From the NCBI RefSeq assembly GCF_033372575.1, contig NZ_CP104094.1, forward strand, positions 124,923 through 156,922: DNA of 32,000 nt. The letters run 5' to 3'. This stretch comes from Candidatus Saccharimonadota bacterium (lineage in GTDB: Bacteria > Bacteroidota > Bacteroidia > Flavobacteriales > Blattabacteriaceae). Numbering within the stretch: the first letter of the stretch is position 1; the number at the start of each line of letters is the position of its first letter. This document shows, piece after piece, positions 788-20,426 of this stretch. Made by a program: the position numbers and the translations under genes. The notes under the pieces were generated by a model, which ran no database searches, was not told the origin of the DNA, and saw nothing but the letters and a program-made list of their open reading frames with translations.

Positions 788-3211
788 ATGTATAAAGAAA
801 CCCCTTTAATAAAACAATATTATAATTTAAAAAAACAATATCCTGATAATATATTATTATTTCAAGTAGGTGATTTTTATGAAATATTTGGTTATGATGC
901 AATATATTGTTCAAAAATACTAGATATTACTTTAACCAAAAGAAATAAAAAAAATAATAATAGTATTTATTTAATAGGCTTTCCATGTAAAGCATTAAAT
1001 ACTTATTTAAAAAAATTAATAAAAAATAATATTAAAGTGGCAATTTGTAATCAAACTAAAAACGAGATAGAAAAAGATAATTTAATAGATAGAAAAATTA
1101 CTAATATTGTAACATCTGGAATTTCTATATATGAAGATATAACAAAAACAAAAAAAATAAAAAAATTTGTAGCTTCATTATATATTGAAAAAAATAATAA
1201 ACAAATTGGTATATCATTAATTGATTTTTCAACTGGAGAATTATTAACTACAGAAGGAAATTTAAAATATATTAAACATATAATAAATTGTTATAAACCA
1301 ATAGAATATTTAATACAAAAAAGTAAAAAAAAAATATTTAATAATTACTTTAATAATATTAAAAATATTAATTTATTAGACGATAATATTTTTAATTATA
1401 ATAATTTATATAATAAATTATTAGAACATTTTAAAGTTTTTTCTTTAAATGGTTTTGGTTTAAAAGATATGAGATTAAGTATTATATCATCTGGTATATT
1501 AATATTTTATATAAATAATTATTATAATTTAAATTTAAATCATGTTAATAGAATTAAAAAAATACAAATTAATAAATATGTTTGGATAGATGATTCAACA
1601 TTAAAAAATTTAGAAATTATAAAATCTATTAATAAAACAGGAAAATCTTTATTAGATATATTAGATAATACATATACATCAATGGGTTATCGTCTTTTAA
1701 ATAATTGGTTAATATTTCCTTTAAAAGATAAAAAAAAAATTTATAATAGACAAAAAATAATAGATAATTATTTTAAAATTAAAGAAAATATTAAATTTAA
1801 TATTATTTATAATTTAAAATTTATTTATGATATAGAAAGATTATTATCTAAAATATCAAATAATAAAATTAATCCAAATCAATTATATAAATTAATAAAT
1901 TCAATAAATAGAATTAAAATTATATTTAAATTATTAAAAATTAATAATAATAATAAAATATTTAATTTTAAATATAAATATATTAAAAAATTAAATAAAA
2001 TATATAATAATATTAATAATGTTTTAATAGAAAATCCAATTAATAAATTTAATAAATTATTTTTTATTAATAAAAATATTTCTAAAAAATTAGATTTATA
2101 TAAAAAAAAATTAAAAAATAATAAAAAATATATATTCAATTATTATAATAAATTAAAAAAAAAATTAAATATAGATTATTTAATTATTAAAAATAATGAT
2201 ATTTTAGGTTATTATATAGAAATTAAAAAAAGTGATAACAAAAAAATTCCTAAAAGTTGGATAAAAAAACAAAAATTATCTTTACATATTAGATATACTA
2301 CTAAATTAATTAATAAATTTGAATATAACATTTATAATATTAAAAAATTAATATTTTCATATGAAAATATTATTTTCAATAAAATAATTAATTATTTAAA
2401 TAAAAAAATAATAGTTTTAAAAAAAATTTCATATTATATTGCTAAATTAGATGTTTTATTATCTTTTTATTTAGCAGCTAAAGAAAATAATTATACTAAA
2501 CCAAAAATAATAAAAAACAAATTAAATAGCATTAATATAATAAAAGGTAGACATCCAGTAATAGAAAAAACTATGGAAATTACAAATAATTATATACCTA
2601 ATAATATATATTTAGATAATTTTAATAATCAAATATTAATTATTACTGGACCTAATATGTCAGGTAAATCAGCTATATTAAGACAAACTGCTTTAATAGT
2701 AATAATGGTACAAATTGGTAGTTTTGTACCTGCTAAAAAAGTAGAAATTAATATAATAGATAAAATATTTAGTAGAATAGGAGCATCTGATAATATATCA
2801 ATGGGTGAATCTACATTTATGGTAGAAATGAATGAAACAGCTAATATATTAAATAATTTTTCAAAAAATAGTTTAATTATAATGGATGAAATTGGAAGAG
2901 GTACAAGTACATATGAAGGAATATCTTTATCTTATTCAATAATAAAATATTTTATTAATAATAAATTAAAACCTAGAGTATTATTTGCAACACATTATCA
3001 TGAATTAAATAAATTATTAAATTATAAAAATTATATAAAATATTATTATTTTACAATAAAAAAAAAAAATAATAATTTTATATTTATTAGAAAATTACAA
3101 GAAGGTTTAAGTAATAATAGTTTTGGTTATTATATTGCTAAAATTGCGGGTATACCTAATCAAGTAATTAAAGAAACAAAAAAAATTAATTTATTATTAA
3201 AAAATAAATAA
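788..3211 (+). CDS. mutS: DNA mismatch repair protein MutS (807 aa; middle domains strongly diverged)
   Basis: The N-terminal mismatch-binding motif is FQVGDFYEIFGYDA (Phe-x-Glu). Other motifs present are Walker A GPNMSGKS, STFMVEMNE, Walker B/signature MDEIGRGTSTYEG, and THYHEL. Confidence 0.9.
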   Translation: MYKETPLIKQYYNLKKQYPDNILLFQVGDFYEIFGYDAIYCSKILDITLTKRNKKNNNSIYLIGFPCKALNTYLKKLIKNNIKVAICNQTKNEIEKDNLIDRKITNIVTSGISIYEDITKTKKIKKFVASLYIEKNNKQIGISLIDFSTGELLTTEGNLKYIKHIINCYKPIEYLIQKSKKKIFNNYFNNIKNINLLDDNIFNYNNLYNKLLEHFKVFSLNGFGLKDMRLSIISSGILIFYINNYYNLNLNHVNRIKKIQINKYVWIDDSTLKNLEIIKSINKTGKSLLDILDNTYTSMGYRLLNNWLIFPLKDKKKIYNRQKIIDNYFKIKENIKFNIIYNLKFIYDIERLLSKISNNKINPNQLYKLINSINRIKIIFKLLKINNNNKIFNFKYKYIKKLNKIYNNINNVLIENPINKFNKLFFINKNISKKLDLYKKKLKNNKKYIFNYYNKLKKKLNIDYLIIKNNDILGYYIEIKKSDNKKIPKSWIKKQKLSLHIRYTTKLINKFEYNIYNIKKLIFSYENIIFNKIINYLNKKIIVLKKISYYIAKLDVLLSFYLAAKENNYTKPKIIKNKLNSINIIKGRHPVIEKTMEITNNYIPNNIYLDNFNNQILIITGPNMSGKSAILRQTALIVIMVQIGSFVPAKKVEINIIDKIFSRIGASDNISMGESTFMVEMNETANILNNFSKNSLIIMDEIGRGTSTYEGISLSYSIIKYFINNKLKPRVLFATHYHELNKLLNYKNYIKYYYFTIKKKNNNFIFIRKLQEGLSNNSFGYYIAKIAGIPNQVIKETKKINLLLKNK

Positions 3212-3276
3212 AAATTATTAAAATTATTTAATTATTTTATATTATATTTTATATTATATTAATTAATATAACTATA

Positions 3277-3349
3277 GCGATAGTAGTTCAATTGGTAGAA
3301 CATAACTTTGCCAAGGTTAAGGTAACGGGTTCGATCCCCGTCTATCGCT
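3277..3349 (+). tRNA. tRNA-Gly (anticodon GCC), 73 nt, no encoded CCA
   Basis: Hand-folded cloverleaf: acceptor GCGATAG/CTATCGC, D arm GTTC-AATTGGTA-GAAC, anticodon stem TAACT/GGTTA with loop TTGCCAA, T arm ACGGG-TTCGATC-CCCGT, discriminator T. It is a local G+C island. Confidence 0.9.
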
Positions 3350-3352
3350 AAC

Positions 3353-3441
3353 GCCTAGATGGTGAAATTGGTAAACACGCAGGACTTAAAATCCTGTTAT
3401 TCAATTAATGAATTTTGCGGGTTCAAGTCCCGCTCTAGGCA
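3353..3441 (+). tRNA. tRNA-Leu (anticodon UAA), type II with long variable arm, 89 nt, no encoded CCA
   Basis: Acceptor GCCTAGA/TCTAGGC, anticodon stem CAGGA/TCCTG with loop CTTAAAA, variable-arm helix ATTCA/TGAAT, T arm GCGGG-TTCAAGT-CCCGC, discriminator A. It starts only 3 nt after tRNA-Gly. Confidence 0.9.
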
Positions 3442-4727
3442 TATATGTTTTTTTTTTTGATGTAGAAACAACTGGTTTACCAAAAGATAATAAATTTATT
3501 GTAGAAAAAATTTTACAATGGCCTCGTTTAATACAAATATCATGGCAATTATATAATAATAAATATAATTTAATAGATATAAAAAATTATTATATAAAAA
3601 ATATAAAATTAAATAAAAACAATAGATATATAATATATGGAAAAAAAAGAACAATTAAAGAAATATTAAAAGAATTTTATAAAATTTTAAAAAAATCCTA
3701 TTTTATAATAGGACATAATATTAATTTTGATTGTAATATAATTATAGGAGAATATTATAGATTAAATTATAAATTTAAAAATATTTTTATAAATAAAAAA
3801 AGAATAAATACAATAAAAATAAAAAATAATAATTACTATTTAAGTTTAAAAAATACTTTTAATTTATTATATAAAGAAAAAAAAAATTATTTATTTCATA
3901 ATTCATTATATGATATATATATTAATATTTTCGTATTTCTAAAATTAATATATTATAAATTAATAAAATTTAATTTTAAATTTAATATAAAAAAGTTTTT
4001 AGTTAATATACCAATTTATAATAATAAGAATATAAAATTAAAGAATAAAATAAATTATTTTAATATACATAATCACTCATATTATTCAATATTTAATTCT
4101 ACTATAAAATTTAAAAATTTAATTAATAAATCAATAAAATATAATATGAAAGCAGTAGGCATAACCGATAATAATATGATGGGAGTATATAATTTTTATT
4201 ATGAAATTAATAAAATTAATAAAATTAATAAAATAAATAAAAAAAAATTTATAAAAGGTATAGTAGGATGTGAAATAAATATAAAAATAAAAAATAAATT
4301 ATATCCTTATATTTTAATAATAAAAAATATAAAAGGTTATTATAATTTAATAAAAATTAATTCTTATAGTTATATAAAAACAAAAAATATTAATTATATA
4401 GATAGAAAAATTATTAAAAAATATTCAAAAGGTTTAATATTTTTAACAGGGACTTTAAAATCTGAAATTTCTTATTATATAAAAAAAAATAAAATTAAGA
4501 AAGCAATAAAAATATTATTATATTGGAAAAAAATATTTAAAAATAATCTATTTATTGAAATTTTTAGATATGGTTTGAAAAATGAAAAAAAAGTTAATAA
4601 ATATTTAATTTTTTTATCTAAAAAATATAATATTAAATATATTAATCAACAAGAAACTTTTTATCTTAATAAATCAGATTATAAAATCTATAAAATTTTA
4701 TTATGTATAAAAAAAAAAAAAATATAA
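3408..4727 (+). CDS. dnaE: DNA polymerase III alpha subunit, upstream segment: N-terminal DnaQ/epsilon-like DEDDh 3-prime-5-prime exonuclease domain plus the first part of the PHP domain. The frame ends inside a poly(A) tract. The true start is uncertain because the first 34 nt of the ORF are tRNA-Leu.
   Basis: Exonuclease motifs: Exo I FFFDVETTGL, Exo II IIGHNINFDCNII, Exo III HNSLYDIY. The PHP domain begins FNIHNHSYYSIFNS...AVGITDNNMMGVYNFY, comparable to E. coli DnaE HLRVHSDYS...ALAITDFTNL. The ORF terminates at a TAA just after the A14 run at 4709-4722. Confidence 0.85.
   Translation: MNFAGSSPALGIYVFFFDVETTGLPKDNKFIVEKILQWPRLIQISWQLYNNKYNLIDIKNYYIKNIKLNKNNRYIIYGKKRTIKEILKEFYKILKKSYFIIGHNINFDCNIIIGEYYRLNYKFKNIFINKKRINTIKIKNNNYYLSLKNTFNLLYKEKKNYLFHNSLYDIYINIFVFLKLIYYKLIKFNFKFNIKKFLVNIPIYNNKNIKLKNKINYFNIHNHSYYSIFNSTIKFKNLINKSIKYNMKAVGITDNNMMGVYNFYYEINKINKINKINKKKFIKGIVGCEINIKIKNKLYPYILIIKNIKGYYNLIKINSYSYIKTKNINYIDRKIIKKYSKGLIFLTGTLKSEISYYIKKNKIKKAIKILLYWKKIFKNNLFIEIFRYGLKNEKKVNKYLIFLSKKYNIKYINQQETFYLNKSDYKIYKILLCIKKKKI
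3448..3458 (+). repeat. T11 homopolymer between a candidate ATG (3445) and the first conserved exonuclease codons
   Basis: Counted directly: ATG at 3445-3447, then 11 T, then GAT GTA GAA ACA ACT GGT (DVETTG). Confidence 0.95.
4204..4239 (+). repeat. 9-bp tandem repeat (AAATTAATA x3 plus one degenerate copy) inside dnaE, encoding (INK)n
   Basis: Direct reading: aaattaata aaattaata aaattaata aaataaata. The protein reads EINKINKINKINKK. Confidence 0.8.
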
Positions 4728-7477
4728 ATAATAATAATGATACATTTCCTAAAAATATTTTTTATTTAAAAAAATATTCAAAAATAAAAAATAAATTTAA
4801 AAATTTTAAAAAAGGTTTCAAAAATTTAAATATTTTATTTAAAAAAGTAAAAAATATAAATCTTAAATATAATATTTTATTACCAATTTATAAAATTTCA
4901 AAAAGAAATTATAATAAAATTAATAAATTATTTAAATTAAAAATTAATAAAAAAAACGTTAATTATTTATATTTAAAATATTTAATTTATAAAGGGGCTA
5001 AAAAAAAATATATAAAAATTAATGATATAATAAAGAAAAGAATTATAAAAGAATTAAAAATAATAAAATATAAAAAATTTGTAAATTATTTTTTAATTGT
5101 TTATGATTTAATTAAAACAGCTAAAAAATTAGATATTTACGTTGGTCCTGGTAGAGGTTCAGTGGCTGGTTCTATAATAGCATATTGTTTAAATATTACT
5201 AAAATTGATCCTATAAAATTTAAATTAATATTTGAAAGATTTTTAAATAATGAAAGAATTAAATTACCTGATATAGATATTGATTTAGAAGATAAAGGAA
5301 GAAAAAAATTATTATTATATATTTATTACAAATATGGAGGTAATGTAGCAAATATTATAACTTATAATAAAATAGGTGCAAAAACTGCAATTAAAGATGT
5401 ATCTAGAGTATTTTATTTATCGTTTAAAGAAGCTAATAAATTATCTAAAATGATAAATAATAATTTTACATTAAAACAAATTTTATCAAAAAAAAATAAT
5501 ATTTTAGTATTTAAAAAAAAATTATCATTAAGTAAATTTAATAATATTTTAAAAATTAGAAAGATATATAATGATAAAAATTCTATAAAAAGTAAAATTT
5601 TAAAATACGCAAAACACTTAGAAGGATTAATAAGATGTATTGGAATACATGCTTGTGGGATCATAATAACTAGTAAAAAATTATTTAATTATATCCCATT
5701 AATGTATAATAATAAAAATAATAATTTGTTATTAACACAATATGATAAAAAATGTATAGAAAATATTGGATTATTAAAAATTGATTTATTAGCGTTAAAA
5801 ACATTAAATATAATTAAAAATAGTTTATTAGAAATTAGAAATAACAAAAAATCAATTAATTTTAATTTATATGATTATAATACATATAAATTATTTAATA
5901 GTTCAAAAACAATAGGAATATTTCAATTTGATTCAGATAATATAAGAATAATATTAAATATTATGAAACCTAATTGGTTTAAAGATTTAATTGCTATTAA
6001 TGCATTGTATAGACCTGGTACAATAAATAATTTATATGAATATTTATTAAGAAAAAAAAATAAAAAAATTATACATTATGAAATTAAAGATATAAAAAAA
6101 TATTTAATTGAAACATATGGACTAACACTTTATCAAGAACAAGTAATATTAATTGCTAGAAAATTATCAGGTATTAGTAATACTGATGCAGATCTTTTAA
6201 GAGAAGCAATAGGAAAAAAAAATATTAATAAATTAAATTTAATTAAAAAAAATTTTTTTAAAAAAGCAATTAAAAAAGGTTATTTATTAAATAAATTAAA
6301 TAAAATATGGAGATCTTGGGAAAATTTTGTTTTATATGCTTTTAATAAAGCACATGCAACTTGTTATTCATATATTTCTTATCAAACAGGATATTTAAAA
6401 ATTAATTATCCAATAGAATTTATGTGTACTTTATTAAATAATAATATAAAAAACAAAAACAAAATTGAAAGTTTTATAAATGAGGCAAAAAGATTAAAAA
6501 TAAAAATTTTACCACCTGATATAAATATTAGTAAATATAATTTTATTATAGAAAAAAAAATATATATTAGATCAGGTTTAGGAATAATTAATAATTTAGG
6601 AGAAAAAACAGTTAAAAAAATAGCCAAAAATAAACCATTTAAATCTTTAACCGATTTTTTAAATAAAATAAAAATTAAAATAATTAATAAAAAAGTAATA
6701 AAATCATTAATATTATCAGGTGCTTTTGATAGTTTTAAAATAAAGAGATATATATATTTTTTAAAATATAAAAATGATTTAAATGTAATTAATTATTTGT
6801 TATTAAAAAAAAAAAAGAATAAAAAAATTGATAAAATAATTAATAAAATATTAAAAATTAAAAATAAAATTAATAAACAATATATTAAATTATATTATAT
6901 AAATAAACAAAAAAAGATATTAGGTTATTATGTAAAATTACATCCTTTATATTATTATAAATTGGAAATAATATATTTAAAATTAAATAATTTAAAACAA
7001 AAATATTATAAAAATAATAAATTTTATTATTTTTATGGAATAATAAAAAAAATTTATAATAATAATAATAATTATTATATATTAATCGAAGATAATTTAT
7101 ATCAAAAAAAAAAATTATTTATTAATAATAATTTATATAATAAAAATATAATTAAATTATATAATATAATAGTTATTAAATGTTATTTTATATACAATAA
7201 TATAAAAATATTAAATATTTTAGATATAAATGATATTTTTAATTATTATAAATTAATGTTATTAACCATTAATATTAATATTATTATTAACTATAAGAAG
7301 ATAATAAAAAAATTTTTATATTTTAAAAAAATATATAAAGGAAAACAAAAAATATATATTCTAATTTATTATTTTAATAATATATATAAAAAAATTATTA
7401 TAAATAATATAAAAATTAATAGAAATATTTTAATATTTTTAAATAAACATAAAAATATTAAATATTCATTATTATAA
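4703..7477 (+). CDS. dnaE: DNA polymerase III alpha subunit, downstream segment (rest of PHP, palm/fingers with catalytic aspartates, C-terminal region). It continues the 3408..4727 ORF in the -1 frame.
   Basis: Motifs present: VGPGRGSVAGSIIAYCLNITKIDP, FERFLNNERIKLPDIDIDLEDKGR (catalytic D-x-D), GIHACGIIIT, IGLLKIDLLALKTL, ALYRPG, TYGLTLYQEQV, FNKAHATCYSYISYQTGYLKINYP. The ATG at 4703 is probably not a real start, because homology is continuous across the junction. Confidence 0.9.
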   Translation: MYKKKKNINNNNDTFPKNIFYLKKYSKIKNKFKNFKKGFKNLNILFKKVKNINLKYNILLPIYKISKRNYNKINKLFKLKINKKNVNYLYLKYLIYKGAKKKYIKINDIIKKRIIKELKIIKYKKFVNYFLIVYDLIKTAKKLDIYVGPGRGSVAGSIIAYCLNITKIDPIKFKLIFERFLNNERIKLPDIDIDLEDKGRKKLLLYIYYKYGGNVANIITYNKIGAKTAIKDVSRVFYLSFKEANKLSKMINNNFTLKQILSKKNNILVFKKKLSLSKFNNILKIRKIYNDKNSIKSKILKYAKHLEGLIRCIGIHACGIIITSKKLFNYIPLMYNNKNNNLLLTQYDKKCIENIGLLKIDLLALKTLNIIKNSLLEIRNNKKSINFNLYDYNTYKLFNSSKTIGIFQFDSDNIRIILNIMKPNWFKDLIAINALYRPGTINNLYEYLLRKKNKKIIHYEIKDIKKYLIETYGLTLYQEQVILIARKLSGISNTDADLLREAIGKKNINKLNLIKKNFFKKAIKKGYLLNKLNKIWRSWENFVLYAFNKAHATCYSYISYQTGYLKINYPIEFMCTLLNNNIKNKNKIESFINEAKRLKIKILPPDINISKYNFIIEKKIYIRSGLGIINNLGEKTVKKIAKNKPFKSLTDFLNKIKIKIINKKVIKSLILSGAFDSFKIKRYIYFLKYKNDLNVINYLLLKKKKNKKIDKIINKILKIKNKINKQYIKLYYINKQKKILGYYVKLHPLYYYKLEIIYLKLNNLKQKYYKNNKFYYFYGIIKKIYNNNNNYYILIEDNLYQKKKLFINNNLYNKNIIKLYNIIVIKCYFIYNNIKILNILDINDIFNYYKLMLLTININIIINYKKIIKKFLYFKKIYKGKQKIYILIYYFNNIYKKIIINNIKINRNILIFLNKHKNIKYSLL
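4709..4722 (+). repeat. A14 homopolymer at the junction of the two dnaE reading frames
   Basis: Counted directly: positions 4709-4722 are all A. The upstream frame reads ATA AAA AAA AAA AAA ATA TAA. The downstream frame reads TAT AAA AAA AAA AAA AAT. Confidence 0.95.
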
Positions 7478-7496: not shown

Positions 7497-8474
7497 TTAT
7501 ATTATTAAACCTAATTTTTTTTTAATTAAAAAAATTTTTTTTTTAGCTATTTTATTAACCTTTTTATAACCATTATATAAAATATTTTTTATAATATTTT
7601 TATTATTAATATAATAATAATATTTTTTTCTTTCTTTTTCGTAAAAATATAATATATATTTATATAATTTTTTTTTAATATTATAAAATCCTATTTTATT
7701 ATTTTTAATTTTTTCTTTTAAAGATGTAAATTCTTCTTTATTTGTAATTATTTTATATAATTTTAATAATATAGTATTTTTAATTTCCTCATAATTAATT
7801 GATTTTATTGATTTATTAGTAGTTTTTATACTCATTATTTGTTTATTTAAATTATCTTTATCATCAAAAATATTAATAATATTATTTTTTGATTTACTCA
7901 TTTTATTACCATCTATACCTGGTATTATATAATTATATTTAATTTTATATTTAGGTATAATAAACAAATTATATTTTAATTTGTTATTTATTATTTTTGC
8001 TATTTTTCTAGTAATTTCTATATGTTGTTTTTGATCTTTTCCAATAATTACTTTATTAATGTCATATAATAAAATATCAGATGCCATTAATATTGGATAA
8101 TTAATTATTCCAGTATTTAAATTGTTTTTATTACTTTTAAAAACATGACATAATTTTAATCTATTAAATGGATAAAAACAATTTAAATACCAAAATAATT
8201 CATTTATTTCTTTAATATCAGATTGTCTATAAAAAAATACATTTTTAGTAAATTTTAAAAATGATAACCAAGTAGCAGCATTTTTATATATATTATTTTT
8301 TAAAGTATTATTATTTTTATAATTAGTAATAGAATGTAAATCAGCTATAAAAATAAAAAATAAATAATTTTTTTTTGATTTAATATATGATAAAGTAGGT
8401 AAAATAATACTATAAATATTAGCTATATGTGGAATTCCTGAACTTTGTATCCCTGTAATAATTTTTTTATTCAT
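7497..8474 (-). CDS. trpS: Tryptophan--tRNA ligase
   Basis: 325 aa class I synthetase. It has TGIQSSGIPHIANIY (HIGH-type), FIADLHSIT, YPILMASDILLYDINKVIIGKDQKQHIEITRKIA, and KMSKS (GNKMSKSKNN). Confidence 0.9.
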   Translation of the reverse strand: MNKKIITGIQSSGIPHIANIYSIILPTLSYIKSKKNYLFFIFIADLHSITNYKNNNTLKNNIYKNAATWLSFLKFTKNVFFYRQSDIKEINELFWYLNCFYPFNRLKLCHVFKSNKNNLNTGIINYPILMASDILLYDINKVIIGKDQKQHIEITRKIAKIINNKLKYNLFIIPKYKIKYNYIIPGIDGNKMSKSKNNIINIFDDKDNLNKQIMSIKTTNKSIKSINYEEIKNTILLKLYKIITNKEEFTSLKEKIKNNKIGFYNIKKKLYKYILYFYEKERKKYYYYINNKNIIKNILYNGYKKVNKIAKKKIFLIKKKLGLII

Positions 8475-8491
8475 TATATAATATAGGTAAT

Positions 8492-8511
8492 GGATAAATT
8501 ATTATTTATCC
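8492..8511. other. Perfect 8-bp inverted repeat with a 4-nt loop (GGATAAAT-TATT-ATTTATCC) in the rplU-trpS spacer. It may be a terminator/attenuator hairpin or a protein-binding palindrome.
   Basis: Read directly. It is one of the few G/C-containing motifs in any spacer in this window. No clear U-tract follows it on the minus strand. Confidence 0.25.
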
Positions 8512-8526
8512 TATCCTACTTACAAT

Positions 8527-8847
8527 TTAAATATGTTTTATTTTAATAATTTTTAATTTAGTTAATATTTGTCTATGTCCAATTTTTTTTTTATATCCTT
8601 TTCTTTTTTTTTTTTTAAAAATAATAATTTTATTAGTTTTAATATGATTTATTACTATAGCTTTAATAATAAAATTTTTAATTATTGGATTTCCAATTAA
8701 TATTTTATTATTTTTATCTTTTATCAATAAAATATTATTTTTAAATTTAATAATTTTATTAATTTTATAATTTAATTTATTTAAATAAATAAATTTATTA
8801 GGAAATATTAAATATTGAATATTACCAATTTTAATTACTGCTTCCAT
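8527..8847 (-). CDS. rplU: 50S ribosomal protein L21
   Basis: 106 aa. N-terminus MEAVIKIGNIQYLIFPNKFIYLNKL, and the conserved KKKIGHRQILTKLKI (GHRQ motif). Confidence 0.85.
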   Translation of the reverse strand: MEAVIKIGNIQYLIFPNKFIYLNKLNYKINKIIKFKNNILLIKDKNNKILIGNPIIKNFIIKAIVINHIKTNKIIIFKKKKRKGYKKKIGHRQILTKLKIIKIKHI

Positions 8848-8864
8848 ATAATTATTAAATTAAT

Positions 8865-10313
8865 TTAAATATTTTTTTTAAAAAATAATGAAATATCAAA
8901 CTTTTTTTTAAAATATTTTATTAAATTTTTTATTTTACATCTTATTTGTTTCATATTATCTCTAAATCTTATTGAAACTGTTTTATTATTTAATGTAAGA
9001 AAATCAATAGTTATACAATATGGAGTACCAAATGAATCTTGAATTTTATATCTTTTTCCAATTGATTTATTTTCATCATAAATAGTAGTAAATTTATATT
9101 TTAAACTATTAAAAATATTTTTTGAAATTTTAATAATTTTATTGTTTTTTATAATTGGAAATATAGCTATTTTAATAGGAGAAATAAATTTAGGTAATTT
9201 TAAATATATTCTTTTTTTATTATTAATATTTTCTATTTTTAATGAATTAGTTAATATTGAATAAAATAATCTATCTAATCCTAAAGAGGTTTCTATAACA
9301 TATGGTATATAATTTTTTTTTGCTTTATTATCATAAAAATATAATTTTTTTTTAGATAAATTATTATGATTTTTTAAATCATAATTTTTTCTAAAATGAA
9401 TACCTTCTAATTCTTTAAATTTATTTAATATTTTAAATTCTATATCAATAGCAAATTTACAATAATGCGATAATTTGTTATGAATTTTTAATTTATATTT
9501 TTTTTTTTTATTAATTAAATAATAAAACCATTTTAATCTAGATTTTATCCAATATTTATACCATTTTTTTTCTTGACCAGGATAAAAAAAATATTGCATT
9601 TCCATTTGTTCAAATTCTCTAGTTCTAAAAATAAATTGTTTAGATATTATTTCATTTCTAAAAGATTTTCCAATTTGTGCTATTCCAAAAGGAAATTTCA
9701 ATCTATTAGATAATTTTACATTTTTAATATTTACAAAAATTCCTTGAGCTGTTTCAGGTCTTAAATAAGTATATTTTTCTTGATCATTATCAAATGAATT
9801 TAATTTTGTTTTAAACATTAAATTAATATTATTTATATTTTCCCATTTAAATAATTTAGATAAATTATATTTTTTTATTATTTTTTTTAAAAACAAATTT
9901 AATTTATTTATATTTTTATTTATTAAATAATAATTAAATATTAATTTAATTTTATTTTTATTTTTAATTTTTATTAATTTATTATCAATTATATTATTAA
10001 TTAATTGATCAATTATATAGATTTTATTATCAATATTATTTATAATAAATAATTCATTAAAGTTTTTAATATGTCCAGAAGCTTTCCATACTTTATTATT
10101 CATTAATATAGATGAGTCTATTCCAACTATATTATTTCTATATTTTACCATATAATTCCACCAAAATTTTTTAATATTATTTTTCATTTCTATTCCTTGT
10201 GGTCCATAATCATATATTGATTTTATACCATTATAAATTTCACTTGATTTAAATATAAAACCATATATTTTAGCATGATTAATTATTAATTTAAGTTTCT
10301 TATTGTAATTCAT
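8865..10313 (-). CDS. glyQS: Glycine--tRNA ligase (alpha2 dimeric GlyQS type)
   Basis: Motifs present: HAKIYGFIFKSSEIYNGIKSIYDYGPQGIEMKNNIKKFWW, YLRPETAQGIFVNI, PFGIAQIGKSFRNEI, REFEQMEMQYF, VIETSLGLDRLFY. I place the start at the ATG at 10313 (MNYNKK...) because the track ORF's first 15 codons run into tRNA-Phe. Confidence 0.9.
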   Translation of the reverse strand: MNYNKKLKLIINHAKIYGFIFKSSEIYNGIKSIYDYGPQGIEMKNNIKKFWWNYMVKYRNNIVGIDSSILMNNKVWKASGHIKNFNELFIINNIDNKIYIIDQLINNIIDNKLIKIKNKNKIKLIFNYYLINKNINKLNLFLKKIIKKYNLSKLFKWENINNINLMFKTKLNSFDNDQEKYTYLRPETAQGIFVNIKNVKLSNRLKFPFGIAQIGKSFRNEIISKQFIFRTREFEQMEMQYFFYPGQEKKWYKYWIKSRLKWFYYLINKKKKYKLKIHNKLSHYCKFAIDIEFKILNKFKELEGIHFRKNYDLKNHNNLSKKKLYFYDNKAKKNYIPYVIETSLGLDRLFYSILTNSLKIENINNKKRIYLKLPKFISPIKIAIFPIIKNNKIIKISKNIFNSLKYKFTTIYDENKSIGKRYKIQDSFGTPYCITIDFLTLNNKTVSIRFRDNMKQIRCKIKNLIKYFKKKFDISLFFKKNI

Positions 10314-10326
10314 AAATTCATAAAAA

Positions 10327-11139
<813 letters not shown>

Positions 11140-16177: not shown

Positions 16178-18394
16178 TTATTTTTTTATTTCAGCATTTA
16201 ATTTGTTTTTAAATAAATTTATTAATACTAATAATATATTGTTAATATATTTTTTTTTTTTCCCATATTTATTTTTTATAATAAAACGAAGAGTATAAGA
16301 TTTTTTATTTTTTGGTAGATTATTTTTATATATATCAAATAAATATATATTAATTAATTTATTTTTTAATTTCTTTTTAGCTAATAAATAAAAATTATTA
16401 AAATATATATTTTTATCAATAATAAATGATAAATCTTTTACAAAATATTGAAACTTATTAATTTTTTTATATTTTATATTTTTATTATTTATAATTTTAA
16501 ATAAATTATTAATATTAATTATTGCTAAATATATATTTTTATTAATATAAAAATTATTTAATTTACCAAATTTTATAATTGGTATATTTTTGTATTTAAA
16601 AATTATTTTAGTTTCAAATATTTTACTATTATATATAATTAATTTATTATATTTTTTAATTCCTACTTTTTCTATAATTAAATTTAAAATATTATATAAA
16701 TAATGTAAATTATTAAAATAATTATTATTTTTATTAGTTAATAATATTTCTATATTTTTTTTTTCTATTATTTTATTATTTTTTTTTATATAAATATTAC
16801 CTATTTCAAAAATTTTTATAGTATTAATTTTTCTATTAATATTATAAATTATATTATTCATCATATTTATAAATAAATTATTCCTTAAATAGGTTAATTT
16901 ATTAATAATTTTATCTTTAAACGAAATATAATTATTATTAATAAAATTTAAATAATAATTATTTTTTACAAATGGTGAATTAATAACTTGAAAAAAACCA
17001 TAATCTATTAATAAATTTATTATTTTATTTTCAATATTTTCAATATTTAAATAATTATTATTTATATAATTATTGTTCTTAATTAAAATATTATATTTAT
17101 TATTTTTAAATTTTATATTATTAATTCCATAAAATCTTATTATATCGTTTATTATATTAATTTTTTTATTAATATTATATTTAAATAAATTTTTATTTAT
17201 TAATATAATATATTTTTTATTATAATATTTAATTTTATAATTTAAAACTAACAAAATTTTTAATATTTTTTTTATTGAAATTTTTTTACCTATTAATTTA
17301 TTTACCTCACTAAATTTCAGTTTTATAAGATTATTATGAATTTTATAATTTTTATAATAATAAACATATTTTATATTATTTATATTATTTATATTTAAAT
17401 ATTTATTTAGAAAATATATATATATATTATATTTAGGTAATATAATAATATTATTATATAATTTAGTAATATTATTATTAATATTATATTTATTTATTAT
17501 ATATCTTATTTTATTTTTTTTATATAATGAAAATGAAATCAATAAATTTTTAGTTTTATTATTAATTTTATTTTTATTACTATTTATAATGTTTGATAAA
17601 TAAATAGGATAATTATTATAAAATAGTATTATGTTTTTATTTTTTTTTAATAAATATTTATTTTTATTTTCCGTAATGAAATTAATATTTTTATTATTTT
17701 CTTTTATTATTAAATTACTTTTACTATATTTAAAATTTATAATTTCTATCGGAATACCAATTTCTTTAATAATAATATTTTTAATATCTATAATATTATT
17801 AATAGGTTTTATATTAGACAAAACTAATTTTTTTTGAATAAAATAATTAGAATATTTAAATTTAAAATTATTTATTAAAAATGTATTATAATATATAATA
17901 TTTTTACTTTTTATTTTTAAATTTATTTTGTTTAATTTTTTAATATTAATATTTTTAATACTAATTAATTTAGTATTAATATTTTTATATTTTAAATAGG
18001 AATATAATTCTCTACTTAAATAATAATAATATGATAGATAACTAATATTATGAGTAATATTAGTATTAATAATATAATCATAATCATATTCTTTACATAC
18101 TATAAAATATTTTTTATTAATTTTTTCTACTAATATTTTAATATTCTTTTTAATATAGTGTTTATTATATATATTAAATATATCATTATTAATAGTTTTT
18201 ATTTTAATTTTATAAATATTATTAATTTTTTTAATTTTTATTATATTACCTAAAATTATATTATTATTATAATTATATTTAATAGGATAAACTTTTTTAA
18301 TAGAAATAATTTCTATTCCTATTTCATTAAATAATTTACTAATATTATAATTAAAATTAATAAATTCTTTTATCCAACTTAATAAAAATATCAT
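16178..18394 (-). CDS. pheT: Phenylalanine--tRNA ligase beta subunit (highly diverged, 738 aa)
   Basis: The N-terminus LSWIKEFINFNYNISKLFNEIGIEIISIKKV matches the typical PheT start (SxxWLKEYI...L...GxEVE). Size and domain spacing are compatible. The rest is almost pure I/K/N/Y/L. Confidence 0.75.
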   Translation of the reverse strand: MIFLLSWIKEFINFNYNISKLFNEIGIEIISIKKVYPIKYNYNNNIILGNIIKIKKINNIYKIKIKTINNDIFNIYNKHYIKKNIKILVEKINKKYFIVCKEYDYDYIINTNITHNISYLSYYYYLSRELYSYLKYKNINTKLISIKNINIKKLNKINLKIKSKNIIYYNTFLINNFKFKYSNYFIQKKLVLSNIKPINNIIDIKNIIIKEIGIPIEIINFKYSKSNLIIKENNKNINFITENKNKYLLKKNKNIILFYNNYPIYLSNIINSNKNKINNKTKNLLISFSLYKKNKIRYIINKYNINNNITKLYNNIIILPKYNIYIYFLNKYLNINNINNIKYVYYYKNYKIHNNLIKLKFSEVNKLIGKKISIKKILKILLVLNYKIKYYNKKYIILINKNLFKYNINKKINIINDIIRFYGINNIKFKNNKYNILIKNNNYINNNYLNIENIENKIINLLIDYGFFQVINSPFVKNNYYLNFINNNYISFKDKIINKLTYLRNNLFINMMNNIIYNINRKINTIKIFEIGNIYIKKNNKIIEKKNIEILLTNKNNNYFNNLHYLYNILNLIIEKVGIKKYNKLIIYNSKIFETKIIFKYKNIPIIKFGKLNNFYINKNIYLAIININNLFKIINNKNIKYKKINKFQYFVKDLSFIIDKNIYFNNFYLLAKKKLKNKLINIYLFDIYKNNLPKNKKSYTLRFIIKNKYGKKKKYINNILLVLINLFKNKLNAEIKK

Positions 18395-19515
18395 ATTATA
18401 TTCATTATAATGATATATATATATTTATTTTTAAAATTTGTAATAATAATATAATTAAGGTCAATAGAAAGTTTAATAACAATTAATTTAGTATTTATAT
18501 ATTTAATAAATTTAAATAATAAAAATAAATTAATTTTAAATTTAATAATATTTTTATTTATATTATTATTAATTTTAATTTTTTTATAAAATAATAAATT
18601 ATTAATATAATTTTTAAATATTAAAATTATATTATTATTACTTATATGTATATTTAATATTTTATTTAAAGAATTATAATTTATTAAATTATAAAATACT
18701 GTTAAAGAATTAAAAAATTTTTTTTTATCAATTAATAATTTAATTAATTTGTTTTTATTATATTTATTAATTTTTTTTAATAAATTATTAATATTATTAA
18801 CAGTATCTATTTTAAAATAATAAAAAAAATTATATTTTTTAATTAAAATTAGATTATTATATATCTTTAAATTAATAATTTTATTATTAGAAATTAATAA
18901 TATTATTTTATTTAAAATTTTAAAAAATTCATTATTAATTTTTAAATAATATTTCTTATTAATGTTTATTTTATTATTAATTAATATTTTTTTTTTTATT
19001 AAATATTGTTTGTAATCAGTCAAATAGAATATAATAATATTATTATAAATTTTAATATAATTATAATTATCTTTTTTATTAAAATTAAAATAATTGATTA
19101 ACTTTAATATTTTTTTTTTTGTTAATTTTAAACTTAATATTTTATTTTCTTTTCTAATTTTTAAAATATTAAGATTATTATTTTTATATAGTTTAAATTT
19201 AAATAAAAAATTATAATTTTGTAAAATTAAATATTTTTCATTTAATATTAATAATAAATTATTAATATATTGTTTATTAAAAAAAAAATATAAAAAATTT
19301 ATTAAATTATTAAAATTTTTAATAATAAAAAATTTTTTTTTTTTAATATATTTATTAATTTTAAAATTACAATTAAGAATGTAATAATTATTTATAAATA
19401 AAAAAAAAATTTTTTTTTTATATAAAATAATATTAATTTTTTTTAAATTATAATTAAAAAATGATATAAAGTATTTTAATTTTTTAAAGTATTTAATATT
19501 AATAATAATATTCAT
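18391..19515 (-). CDS. Highly diverged 374-aa protein, possibly the DNA polymerase III beta sliding clamp
   Basis: The length matches DnaN (about 370 aa). The C-terminus KYIYIIIMNII resembles the DnaN ending (y-l-l-M-P-x-r). There is a weak by-eye N-terminal pattern match. A long intact ORF is unlikely by chance in sequence where TAA is so frequent. It overlaps the pheT start by ATGA. Confidence 0.4.
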   Translation of the reverse strand: MNIIINIKYFKKLKYFISFFNYNLKKINIILYKKKIFFLFINNYYILNCNFKINKYIKKKKFFIIKNFNNLINFLYFFFNKQYINNLLLILNEKYLILQNYNFLFKFKLYKNNNLNILKIRKENKILSLKLTKKKILKLINYFNFNKKDNYNYIKIYNNIIIFYLTDYKQYLIKKKILINNKININKKYYLKINNEFFKILNKIILLISNNKIINLKIYNNLILIKKYNFFYYFKIDTVNNINNLLKKINKYNKNKLIKLLIDKKKFFNSLTVFYNLINYNSLNKILNIHISNNNIILIFKNYINNLLFYKKIKINNNINKNIIKFKINLFLLFKFIKYINTKLIVIKLSIDLNYIIITNFKNKYIYIIIMNII

Positions 19516-19560
19516 ATAATTATTAATTATTAATTATATTAATATTATAAATATATTTTT

Positions 19561-19636
19561 GGTTTGGTAGTTCAAATTTGGTAAGAATACGTGCCTGTCA
19601 CGCACGAGGTTACGGGTTCAAATCCCGTCCAAACCG
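19561..19636 (+). tRNA. tRNA-Asp (anticodon GUC), 76 nt, no encoded CCA
   Basis: GGTTTGG-TA-GTTC-AAATTTGGTAA-GAAT-A-CGTGC-CTGTCAC-GCACG-AGGTT-ACGGG-TTCAAAT-CCCGT-CCAAACC-G. Confidence 0.9.
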
Positions 19637-19637
19637 T

Positions 19638-20426
19638 ATGAAAAAGATAAAAAAAACTATAGCTAAAATATATACAATAAGTATTATAGAGAATAAAATT
19701 AAAAATATTAATAAACTAATAAATTATAAATTAAATAATAATTATAAATATTTAACAAATAAGTTATTTAAAAAATTATATAAATTATTAATATCAATTA
19801 AAAATAAAAAAAAAATAATATTAAAAAAAATAAAAAAAAAAATAAAAAAAAACAATTATTATAATAAATTAATAAAAAAATATAAAAAACAAATATTAAA
19901 TATTAAAAATAATATTGAATTAATAATAATAAAAAAAGAAATAAAATATTTTAAAATAAAAAAAAAAATAAATAATAAAATAAATAATAAATATAATAAG
20001 ATATTAAAATATTTAAATAAACAAAAAAAAATAATAAATAAAAAAAAAAATAATATTATAATATTTTTAATATTTTATAAAAAAAAAAATAATAAATTAA
20101 AAAAAAAATTAAATAAAATAAAATATAAATTAAAATTTATTTTAAATATTATTTTAAATAAAAAAAAAGTAAAAAAATTAGAAATTTATAAAATTTATAA
20201 TTATATAAAAAATAATTCAAAAGATAAAAAAGGAATATTATCGGTAGATTATAATAGAGTAGTAAATAATGTAAACTTGAAAATACCGATACAAAAATAT
20301 ATAGATTTATTAAATTATGAATATATTAATTATGATATATATACAGGAAAAATATTAATTGATACTTATTTAGCAAATAAAATAAATAAAAGAGTAAATA
20401 AATTAATAAAGAAAATAATAAAATAA
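19638..20426 (+). CDS. Lys-rich coiled-coil protein whose C-terminal segment resembles the COG1579 (DUF164) zinc-ribbon family but has no cysteines
   Basis: The start is placed at the ATG at 19638 (MKKIKKTIAKIY), 1 nt after tRNA-Asp. The C-terminus KKGILSVDYNRVVNNVNLKIPIQKYIDLLNYEYINYDIYTGKILID aligns by eye to the family pattern G-x-A-V-V...C-x-x-C...IPxQ...C-x-x-CGRIL. The N-terminal roughly 200 aa is K/N/I-rich and probably coiled coil. Confidence 0.35.
   Translation: MKKIKKTIAKIYTISIIENKIKNINKLINYKLNNNYKYLTNKLFKKLYKLLISIKNKKKIILKKIKKKIKKNNYYNKLIKKYKKQILNIKNNIELIIIKKEIKYFKIKKKINNKINNKYNKILKYLNKQKKIINKKKNNIIIFLIFYKKKNNKLKKKLNKIKYKLKFILNIILNKKKVKKLEIYKIYNYIKNNSKDKKGILSVDYNRVVNNVNLKIPIQKYIDLLNYEYINYDIYTGKILIDTYLANKINKRVNKLIKKIIK

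Follow-up and report, generated by a model that had tools for sequence, protein, structure and literature searches.

Frame breaks at two homopolymeric tracts in the dnaE gene of a Shikimatogenerans symbiont of bostrichid beetles

How does a bacterium produce its replicative DNA polymerase when the gene encoding it is, as assembled, out of frame? This question is raised by a 32,000-nucleotide stretch of contig NZ_CP104094.1 (positions 124,923 to 156,922; hereafter the window), in which dnaE, encoding the alpha subunit of DNA polymerase III (Pol III), is divided between two open reading frames (ORFs) that differ by one base. Database searches assigned the source strain to Candidatus Shikimatogenerans bostrichidophilus, which belongs to the Bacteroidota and lives in symbiosis with bostrichid beetles; the genome contig of the strain is 156,922 bp long and the window has a GC content of 13.8%. 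An initial annotation of the window had described the frame switch, which coincides with a run of 14 adenines (A14), and proposed that it is overcome by transcriptional slippage. Herein, the observation is confirmed and its interpretation partly supported. On the comparative evidence below, the best reading, in which our confidence is about even, is that positions 3445-7477 constitute a single functional dnaE, a Bacteroidota-type fusion of exonuclease, PHP and Pol III alpha domains that would be read by slippage at a real A14. In addition, we identified a second out-of-frame tract, a run of 11 thymines (T11) immediately following the start codon, that is common to six other genomes; of the two sites, this conserved start makes the firmer case and holds the greater interest.

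Two open reading frames encode one DnaE

The upstream ORF (ORF1, 3408-4727, 439 aa, frame 0) and the downstream ORF (ORF2, 4703-7477, 924 aa, frame 2) overlap by 25 nt at a single locus. As the initial annotation had proposed, they are two parts of one DnaE: their matches to the NCBIfam DnaE equivalog PRK05673 are exactly contiguous, spanning profile positions 4-228 and 229-1004, respectively, and the frame-corrected protein aligns end to end and without a break to the intact orthologues from CP104096 (1340 aa, 82% identical) and CP104095 (1338 aa, 81% identical). By Pfam, ORF1 carries the RNase_T exonuclease together with the full PHP match, and ORF2 the DNA_pol3_alpha, finger and HHH_6 domains. 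This exonuclease-PHP-polymerase order is the normal architecture of Bacteroidota DnaE, and its components are all present in sequence: the Exo I-III motifs of the DEDDh exonuclease (DVE within DVETTG, HNINFD and HNSLYD) are followed by PHP and then, in the frame-2 segment with its PDIDID and GIHACG motifs, by DNA_pol3_alpha (approximately 4970-5794), finger (approximately 5804-6280) and HHH_6 (approximately 6497-6748). The window DnaE is a single polypeptide only after frame correction. ORF2 is identical to NCBI protein WOX79106.1 / WP_318165751.1, and the top hits of the database search included no second DnaE from the 156.9-kb contig. The PHP domain had been described as split across the junction; the whole Pfam PHP match in fact lies upstream, but the junction, which maps to approximately residue 232-236 of Thermus aquaticus Pol III alpha, is still inside the structural PHP region.

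Apart from the A14 and T11 sites, no stops or frameshifts are found across the 1356 codons of the gene, 653 of which are one step from a stop. In a neutral model of stop-codon gain with a mutation pattern equal to the window's own base composition, the probability that the sequence would remain free of stops is 0.5 at 0.0014 substitutions per site and 0.05 at 0.006; at third codon positions, the divergence from the closest strain is 0.17. In a three-taxon comparison, the share of branch length assigned to the window was 0.37 for dnaE and 0.52, 0.40 and 0.26 for the controls mutS, trpS and rplU, and as 0.37 falls within the control range of 0.26-0.52 we see no relaxed constraint or acceleration in dnaE. 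Together, the stop-codon calculation and the branch lengths rule out an old pseudogene, in line with the earlier argument that both halves are too open for one. The lack of decay leaves three possibilities: the frameshift does not exist in the genome, it arose extremely recently, or the gene can function in spite of it.

The frame switch lies within the A14 tract

A single insertion can fuse the two frames only within positions 4694-4724, and homology narrows the site to the A14 tract (4709-4722). No homopolymer in the window is longer; one T13 and two A12 runs come next in length. As initially claimed, one inserted A (A15) yields an ORF of 1356 codons without a stop; shortening to A12 restores the frame equally well. 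Following repair, the junction reads LLCIKKKKNINN in the window versus LLCIKNKINI in CP104096 and LLCIKKKINF in CP104095. The corresponding DNA is ATA AAA AAT AAA ATA AAT in CP104096, ATA AAA AAA AAA ATT in CP104095, and ATA followed by A13 and TAT in the window. Since the flanking ATA and GAT codons are separated by 35 nt in the window and by 36 nt in CP104096, the missing base lies within the tract.

A run of this length is not in itself improbable, with approximately 0.2 A14 tracts expected per 32 kb at the window's composition. What is not random is its position, at the very point where a conserved gene changes frame. Just 5' of the tract is the ATG at 4703 with which ORF2 begins. This triplet is out of frame in the orthologues, where it is a by-product of the conserved codons TTA-TGT-ATA and is present even though the genes are intact, and it is probably fortuitous.

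A T11 tract follows the dnaE start codon in seven genomes

The initial annotation placed the start of ORF1 at ATG 3408. Because this triplet lies inside the gene for tRNA-Leu, it is not the dnaE start, which we assign to ATG 3445. The N-terminus of Bacteroidota DnaE has the form M-x4-D-[TV]-E-T-T-G-L-P, in which the methionine is exactly five residues ahead of the Exo-I aspartate. In the window, the equivalent of this methionine is ATG 3445, followed by T11 and then GAT, such that the frames of the start and of the exonuclease are offset by one base; read literally, the start would give MFFFLM and a stop. Along with A14, this is the second site in the gene with a single 1-base indel inside a long coding-strand run (at least 9 nt).

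An ATG directly ahead of the T run is kept in 10/10 loci examined. The exact arrangement ATG-T11-GAT occurs in seven genomes, namely the window, CP104096, CP099822, CP099823, CP099824, CP099827 and the Logan assembly of ERR3173699; within the analysed loci, ATG and T11 together occupy positions 3445-3458 in the window, 3038-3051 in L001 (CP104096), 2255-2268 in L008, 2176-2189 in L009 (CP099823), 2219-2232 in L010 (CP099824), 2433-2446 in L012 (CP099822) and 1953-1966 in L013. In-frame alternatives are found in CP104095 (L002), which has T12, and in CP099830 (L004), which has the interrupted 12-nt stretch TTTTTGTTTTTT. The Exo II and III motifs are intact in 7/7 T11 genomes, and the five T11 loci that lack a second frame break are open for 1323-1410 codons into the polymerase. 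In a DnaE tree, a single major clade contains all seven T11 genomes, the T12 strain and a strain in which the run is interrupted. The recurrence of T11 in seven genomes from different data sets and assemblers excludes random assembly error at this site.

We also considered whether an in-frame non-ATG start could replace slippage at T11. An ATA codon could serve in the window, L001, L009 and L012, but no such start is possible in L008, L010 and L013, where no start-like codon of any kind occurs in the exonuclease frame from the preceding stop to the aspartate (TAA TAT GTT TTT TTT TTT GAT), and this candidate was rejected. Either slippage at T11, by a U12 mRNA or a -1 ribosomal shift, would start dnaE in the T11 clade, or an initiation mechanism of another kind would do so. 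From the conservation of the site, slippage-dependent expression of dnaE looks both real and old in this clade.

Further frame breaks in dnaE occur elsewhere among the relatives. In CP099823 the frame is broken at an A21 (L009 2909-2929) between the exonuclease and PHP domains, and in JAMYFC01 at a T15 (L015, JAMYFC010000007, approximately 2140-2160) inside the exonuclease; in CP099828 (L011) the exonuclease domain of dnaE is lost completely. A broader proposal is that a whole clade within Shikimatogenerans may make its replicative polymerase only by homopolymer slippage, T11 having been out of frame since the common ancestor and A14, A21 and T15 being further, strain-specific sites. We put this forward tentatively, with confidence slightly short of even. 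The features of the window locus are collected in Table 1; the tRNA-Gly/tRNA-Leu pair is also found upstream of dnaE in six related loci.

Table 1. Features of the dnaE locus (positions within the window).
Feature	Position	Strand	Remarks
tRNA-Gly	3276-3350		Directly before tRNA-Leu; ARAGORN
tRNA-Leu(taa)	3353-3441	+	ARAGORN; overlaps the 5' end of the mechanically called ORF1
dnaE start codon ATG	3445-3447	+	3 nt past the tRNA-Leu 3' end; one base out of the exonuclease frame
T11 tract, putative second slippage site	3448-3458	+	Between ATG and the Exo-I GAT; 12 bases needed for frame
Upstream dnaE segment, frame 0	3459-4724	+	DEDDh exonuclease and PHP (Pfam match approximately 4065-4562)
Frame-0 stop of the upstream segment	4725-4727		
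A14 tract, frame-switch point	4709-4722	+	A15, A12 or a -1 ribosomal slip would give ...LLCIKKKKNINNNND...
Downstream dnaE segment, frame 2	4721-7477	+	End of structural PHP region, polymerase core, finger, HHH_6, C-terminal region

Long coding runs are mostly sized in frame

Next, we considered how reliably long runs are sized in these assemblies. All of the approximately 22 other genes of the window are intact despite 36 other runs of at least 10 nt, including a T13 (+ strand, 8604-8616; A13 in the sense of the gene) inside rplU, and an A12 at 6805-6816 is likewise in frame; these genes include mutS, trpS, rplU, proS, tsf, rpsB, rpsI, rplM, dnaK, tgt, pheT, hisS, ychF, gyrA, rplS, rplY, rsfS and rpoC. 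Across the window and seven related loci, coding runs of at least 12 nt comprise 55 that are in frame versus 3 that switch frame, and the in-frame runs include A14, A16 and A23 in sister strains and reach A24 elsewhere. For the great bulk of long runs, the assembled length can therefore be taken as right, which does not certify any single run. That 55/58 such runs are in frame also argues for selection on run length, despite the heavy slippage expected of them. Two further candidate switches were rejected: an A11 in L003 is merely the trpS/rpmA gene boundary, and at an A16 in L011 (8905-8920), between two ORFs of a PDDEXK-like gene, homology is too weak for a frameshift to be called.

The longest in-frame poly(A) runs are an A23 in L002 (6336-6358), an A24 in L008 (3808-3831), and an A21 (5625-5645) and an A20 (7963-7982) in L009. 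Such runs amount to as many as eight consecutive AAA lysine codons, in essential genes including dnaE.

Proposed correction at the two tracts

We propose that A14 arose from an in-frame AAA-AAN-AAA-ATN context, in which two T-to-A changes would have produced A15 before one A was lost. The window dnaE would thereby be one base short at two tracts, the T11 common to six other genomes and the strain-specific A14, both needing the same correction: an RNA that has gained one base or lost two, or a -1 shift of the ribosome. In the first route, RNA polymerase would slip and add an extra U or A to the mRNA. In the second, the ribosome would move back by one base on U-UUU-UUU or A-AAA-AAA, and an A-AAA-AAA heptamer is present in the frame of ORF1 (ATA AAA AAA AAA AAA ATA TAA). 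Either route would yield MFFFFDVETTG... at the N-terminus and ...LLCIKKKKNINNNND... at the junction, with full-length DnaE coming from a fraction of expression events. Without slippage, translation would be expected to give the peptide MFFFLM (6 aa) and a fragment of 430-odd aa, comprising exonuclease and PHP, that terminates one codon past the tract. The fused DnaE, of 158 kDa as against 52 and 110 kDa for two separate products, is predicted to give a chymotryptic, junction-spanning peptide, CIKKKKNINNNNDTF (or a form with one K fewer), and an N-terminal peptide, MFFFFDVETTGLPK or MFFFDVETTGLPK; the tryptic peptide NINNNNDTFPK would arise equally from ORF2 alone.

Both routes have published precedents. 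At the poly(A) frameshifts of Buchnera and Blochmannia, 12-50% of transcripts are corrected, a range from Tamas et al. (2008) that is given in PMC5009743, and a figure of approximately 30% full-length transcripts is quoted in PMC3017870 (Williams & Wernegreen 2010). In Escherichia coli, ribosome sliding is robust on runs of at least A11 (Koutmou et al. 2015, PMC4363877). A low yield would be tolerated, as a cell requires only a very small number of DnaE molecules. Moreover, given in-frame coding runs of up to A24, transcripts in these symbionts are probably heterogeneous in length in any case, and for function it may be only a matter of degree whether the genome has A14 or A15.

Several of our results nonetheless weigh against slippage at a real A14. 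The initial annotation had suggested comparing the orthologous site in relatives. In this comparison, the A14 frameshift is restricted to the window strain, the sisters being in frame with shorter or interrupted tracts (AAAAAATAAAAT, and A11). With the two closest genomes in frame, an argument from conservation is absent for this site. The broken tract is also the longest homopolymer of the window, and hence the likeliest place for an assembly error. The need for two independent corrections per molecule would make the yield the product of two modest efficiencies. Finally, no downstream stimulatory RNA structure was found at 4690-4810 (z = -0.45; 63/200 shuffles fold as well), and without such a structure A14 is not a programmed site of the dnaX type.

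Alternative explanations for the A14 frameshift

The best-surviving alternative is that the true tract is A15 and was contracted in the assembly by library-PCR stutter or a homopolymer miscall, leaving the gene ordinary at this site. The in-frame ancestor reconstructed from the orthologues has exactly A15, and the loss of one base is the commonest homopolymer error. The frameshift is also specific to one strain and located in the longest run of the window, and the lack of decay or relaxed constraint is what an intact gene would display. No independent assembly of the strain was found: when the fused protein, ORF1 and ORF2 were each looked up by exact match, only ORF2 was returned, from the same NCBI record, and scanning metagenomes for the junction sequence likewise yielded 0 hits. 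Set against this are the 55/58 coding tracts of at least 12 nt that are sized in frame, among them the sisters' A14, A16 and A23 and the 13-nt run in rplU of the window, as well as the evidence from T11, in seven genomes from different data sets and assemblers, that the clade tolerates an out-of-frame homopolymer in dnaE. On balance we consider an artefact unlikely, if still a serious contender. An assembly error at A14 would make this site ordinary but would leave the conserved T11 start untouched.

A less probable explanation, and one we doubt, is length heteroplasmy, whereby replication slippage in a polyploid symbiont would keep up a mixture of A13, A14 and A15 copies inside each host, the in-frame copies supplying DnaE and the assembly displaying the mode. 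It would be compatible with intact, constrained ORFs and follows from the instability of long mononucleotide runs and from the indel hot spots at homopolymers in endosymbionts (PMC3268670). However, the adjoining mutS gene (788-3211) is intact and should limit drift in run length, and T11 is fixed at one length in seven divergent genomes, which points to stable lengths.

Least of all do we favor a recent true inactivation, or an enzyme working in two pieces (exonuclease and PHP from ORF1, polymerase from ORF2 starting at ATG 4703): ORF2 does have this ATG and is annotated at NCBI as a 924-aa protein, and the splitting off of the exonuclease at A21 in CP099823 and its loss in CP099828 suggest that some modularity is tolerated, but the ATG is the out-of-frame by-product described above, the break falls within the PHP region and off a domain boundary, alignment to the intact orthologues reveals neither intein halves nor inserted sequence at the junction, Pfam finds no domain beyond the five named above, the top hits contain no second DnaE of the contig, and a cell deprived of its only replicase would die, nor is any decay seen. 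The position of the break inside the PHP region and the lack of an intein or insertion make a two-piece enzyme unlikely. A split-intein or two-gene reading is likewise ruled out by the continuous alignment and by the position of the break.

Comparison with known systems

Among known systems, slippage at A14 and T11 would most closely resemble the rescue of frameshifted genes in Buchnera and Blochmannia. As in those genera, the host is an extremely AT-rich obligate insect endosymbiont, a 1-base indel lies in a long coding homopolymer, the gene is otherwise intact and constrained, and genes of replication are affected. Like some Blochmannia frameshifts, the T11 start is common to divergent lineages; conservation of this kind is found at T11 (seven genomes, one clade) and not at A14. 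The differences are that the window belongs to a Bacteroidota symbiont rather than a gammaproteobacterium, that the gene is dnaE itself and needs two corrections, one immediately past the start codon, and that the tracts of its clade are longer, with in-frame coding runs of up to A24.

The initial proposal of slippage rescue thus gains comparative support from T11 in seven genomes, from the A21 and T15 breaks and from the 55 versus 3 tally, but transcriptional slippage is not the sole mechanism that could operate, since ribosome sliding gives the same protein. In common with the sliding described in PMC4363877, A14 has A-AAA-AAA, exceeds the A11 threshold, and would yield the homologous protein upon a -1 shift. 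It also shares with the -1 frameshifting of dnaX (A-AAA-AAG) a non-shifted product that stops right past the site. Unlike in dnaX, no downstream structure accompanies A14 and the site is not conserved in the sisters.

The DnaE of cyanobacteria is naturally split into DnaE-N and DnaE-C, which are joined by a split intein. There too, Pol III alpha is encoded by two ORFs. In contrast, the two window ORFs share 25 nt, lie at a single locus and have no inteins, and their split amounts to a 1-base frame error in a homopolymer.

The initial annotation had presented slippage rescue as reaching the replicative polymerase itself. Precedence in replication genes belongs to Blochmannia vafer, in which homopolymer frameshifts of dnaX and dnaG have been published (PMC3017870); dnaE itself would be new. 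The kind of phenomenon, a poly(A) frameshift rescued by slippage in AT-rich insect symbionts, is therefore known already, and what would be new is the different phylum, the gene and the T11 start. Frameshifts and homopolymers are unmentioned in Kiefer et al. 2023 (PMC10284843), in which the closed genomes are 173-200 kb, and we found no papers citing CP104095 or CP104096.

Should the assembled tract lengths hold, the replicase of a genome counted among the most AT-rich known would owe its catalytic subunit to error-prone decoding at two homopolymers, and one of these slippage sites would have been maintained across a deep symbiont radiation. Slippage rescue, so far described in Gammaproteobacteria, would then also cover symbionts of the Bacteroidota and the gene dnaE, and coding runs of A14-A24 would illustrate how far expression can drift from genome sequence. 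Were slippage clade-wide, the level of DnaE would be set by transcriptional or ribosomal infidelity, and the out-of-frame length would either be selected or represent the "effective in-frame" length for the RNA polymerase of the organism.

Annotation of dnaE and neighboring genes

The arrangement of the locus has consequences for annotation. NCBI lists a 924-aa "DnaE" for the strain, and the genes of several relatives are called from internal ATGs or from the tRNA-Leu ATG. In strains in which dnaE has a frame break or has lost the exonuclease, gene callers report a 1112-1188-aa "DnaE" without this domain. The ORF-finder start of the window dnaE (MNFAGSSPALGI...) lies inside tRNA-Leu, and the tRNA-internal ATG is also used in the public annotations of CP104096 dnaE and of P0005 and P0011. 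Such mis-called starts make pseudogene counts and "missing exonuclease" calls in these symbionts unreliable. Similarly, proS is called from inside tRNA-Phe (10326-10400), as an ORF at 8865-10358 with a GTG start that encodes 497 aa, compared with 475 aa in relatives.

Some of the related loci exhibit variations in other genes. In CP099822, mutS is called as two pieces of 452+ aa and 240 aa (L012 1-2200). A gene for a PDDEXK-family nuclease is split or fragmented in CP099828 (L011 8905-8920) and CP099824 (L010 7467-9465). Both cases may reflect further splits or decay associated with homopolymers. In CP104096, rpmA (encoding L27, 84 aa) is located between trpS and rplU (L001 7998-8252); it is absent from the trpS-rplU gap of the window (8475-8526) and of CP104095, and L27 was not detected by tblastn in the 32-kb window. 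Two ORFs of the window, at 18391-19515 (- strand, 374 aa) and 19578-20426 (+ strand, 282 aa), have no Pfam match; the latter contains four A11 runs, and its 5' end overlaps tRNA-Asp (19560-19637).

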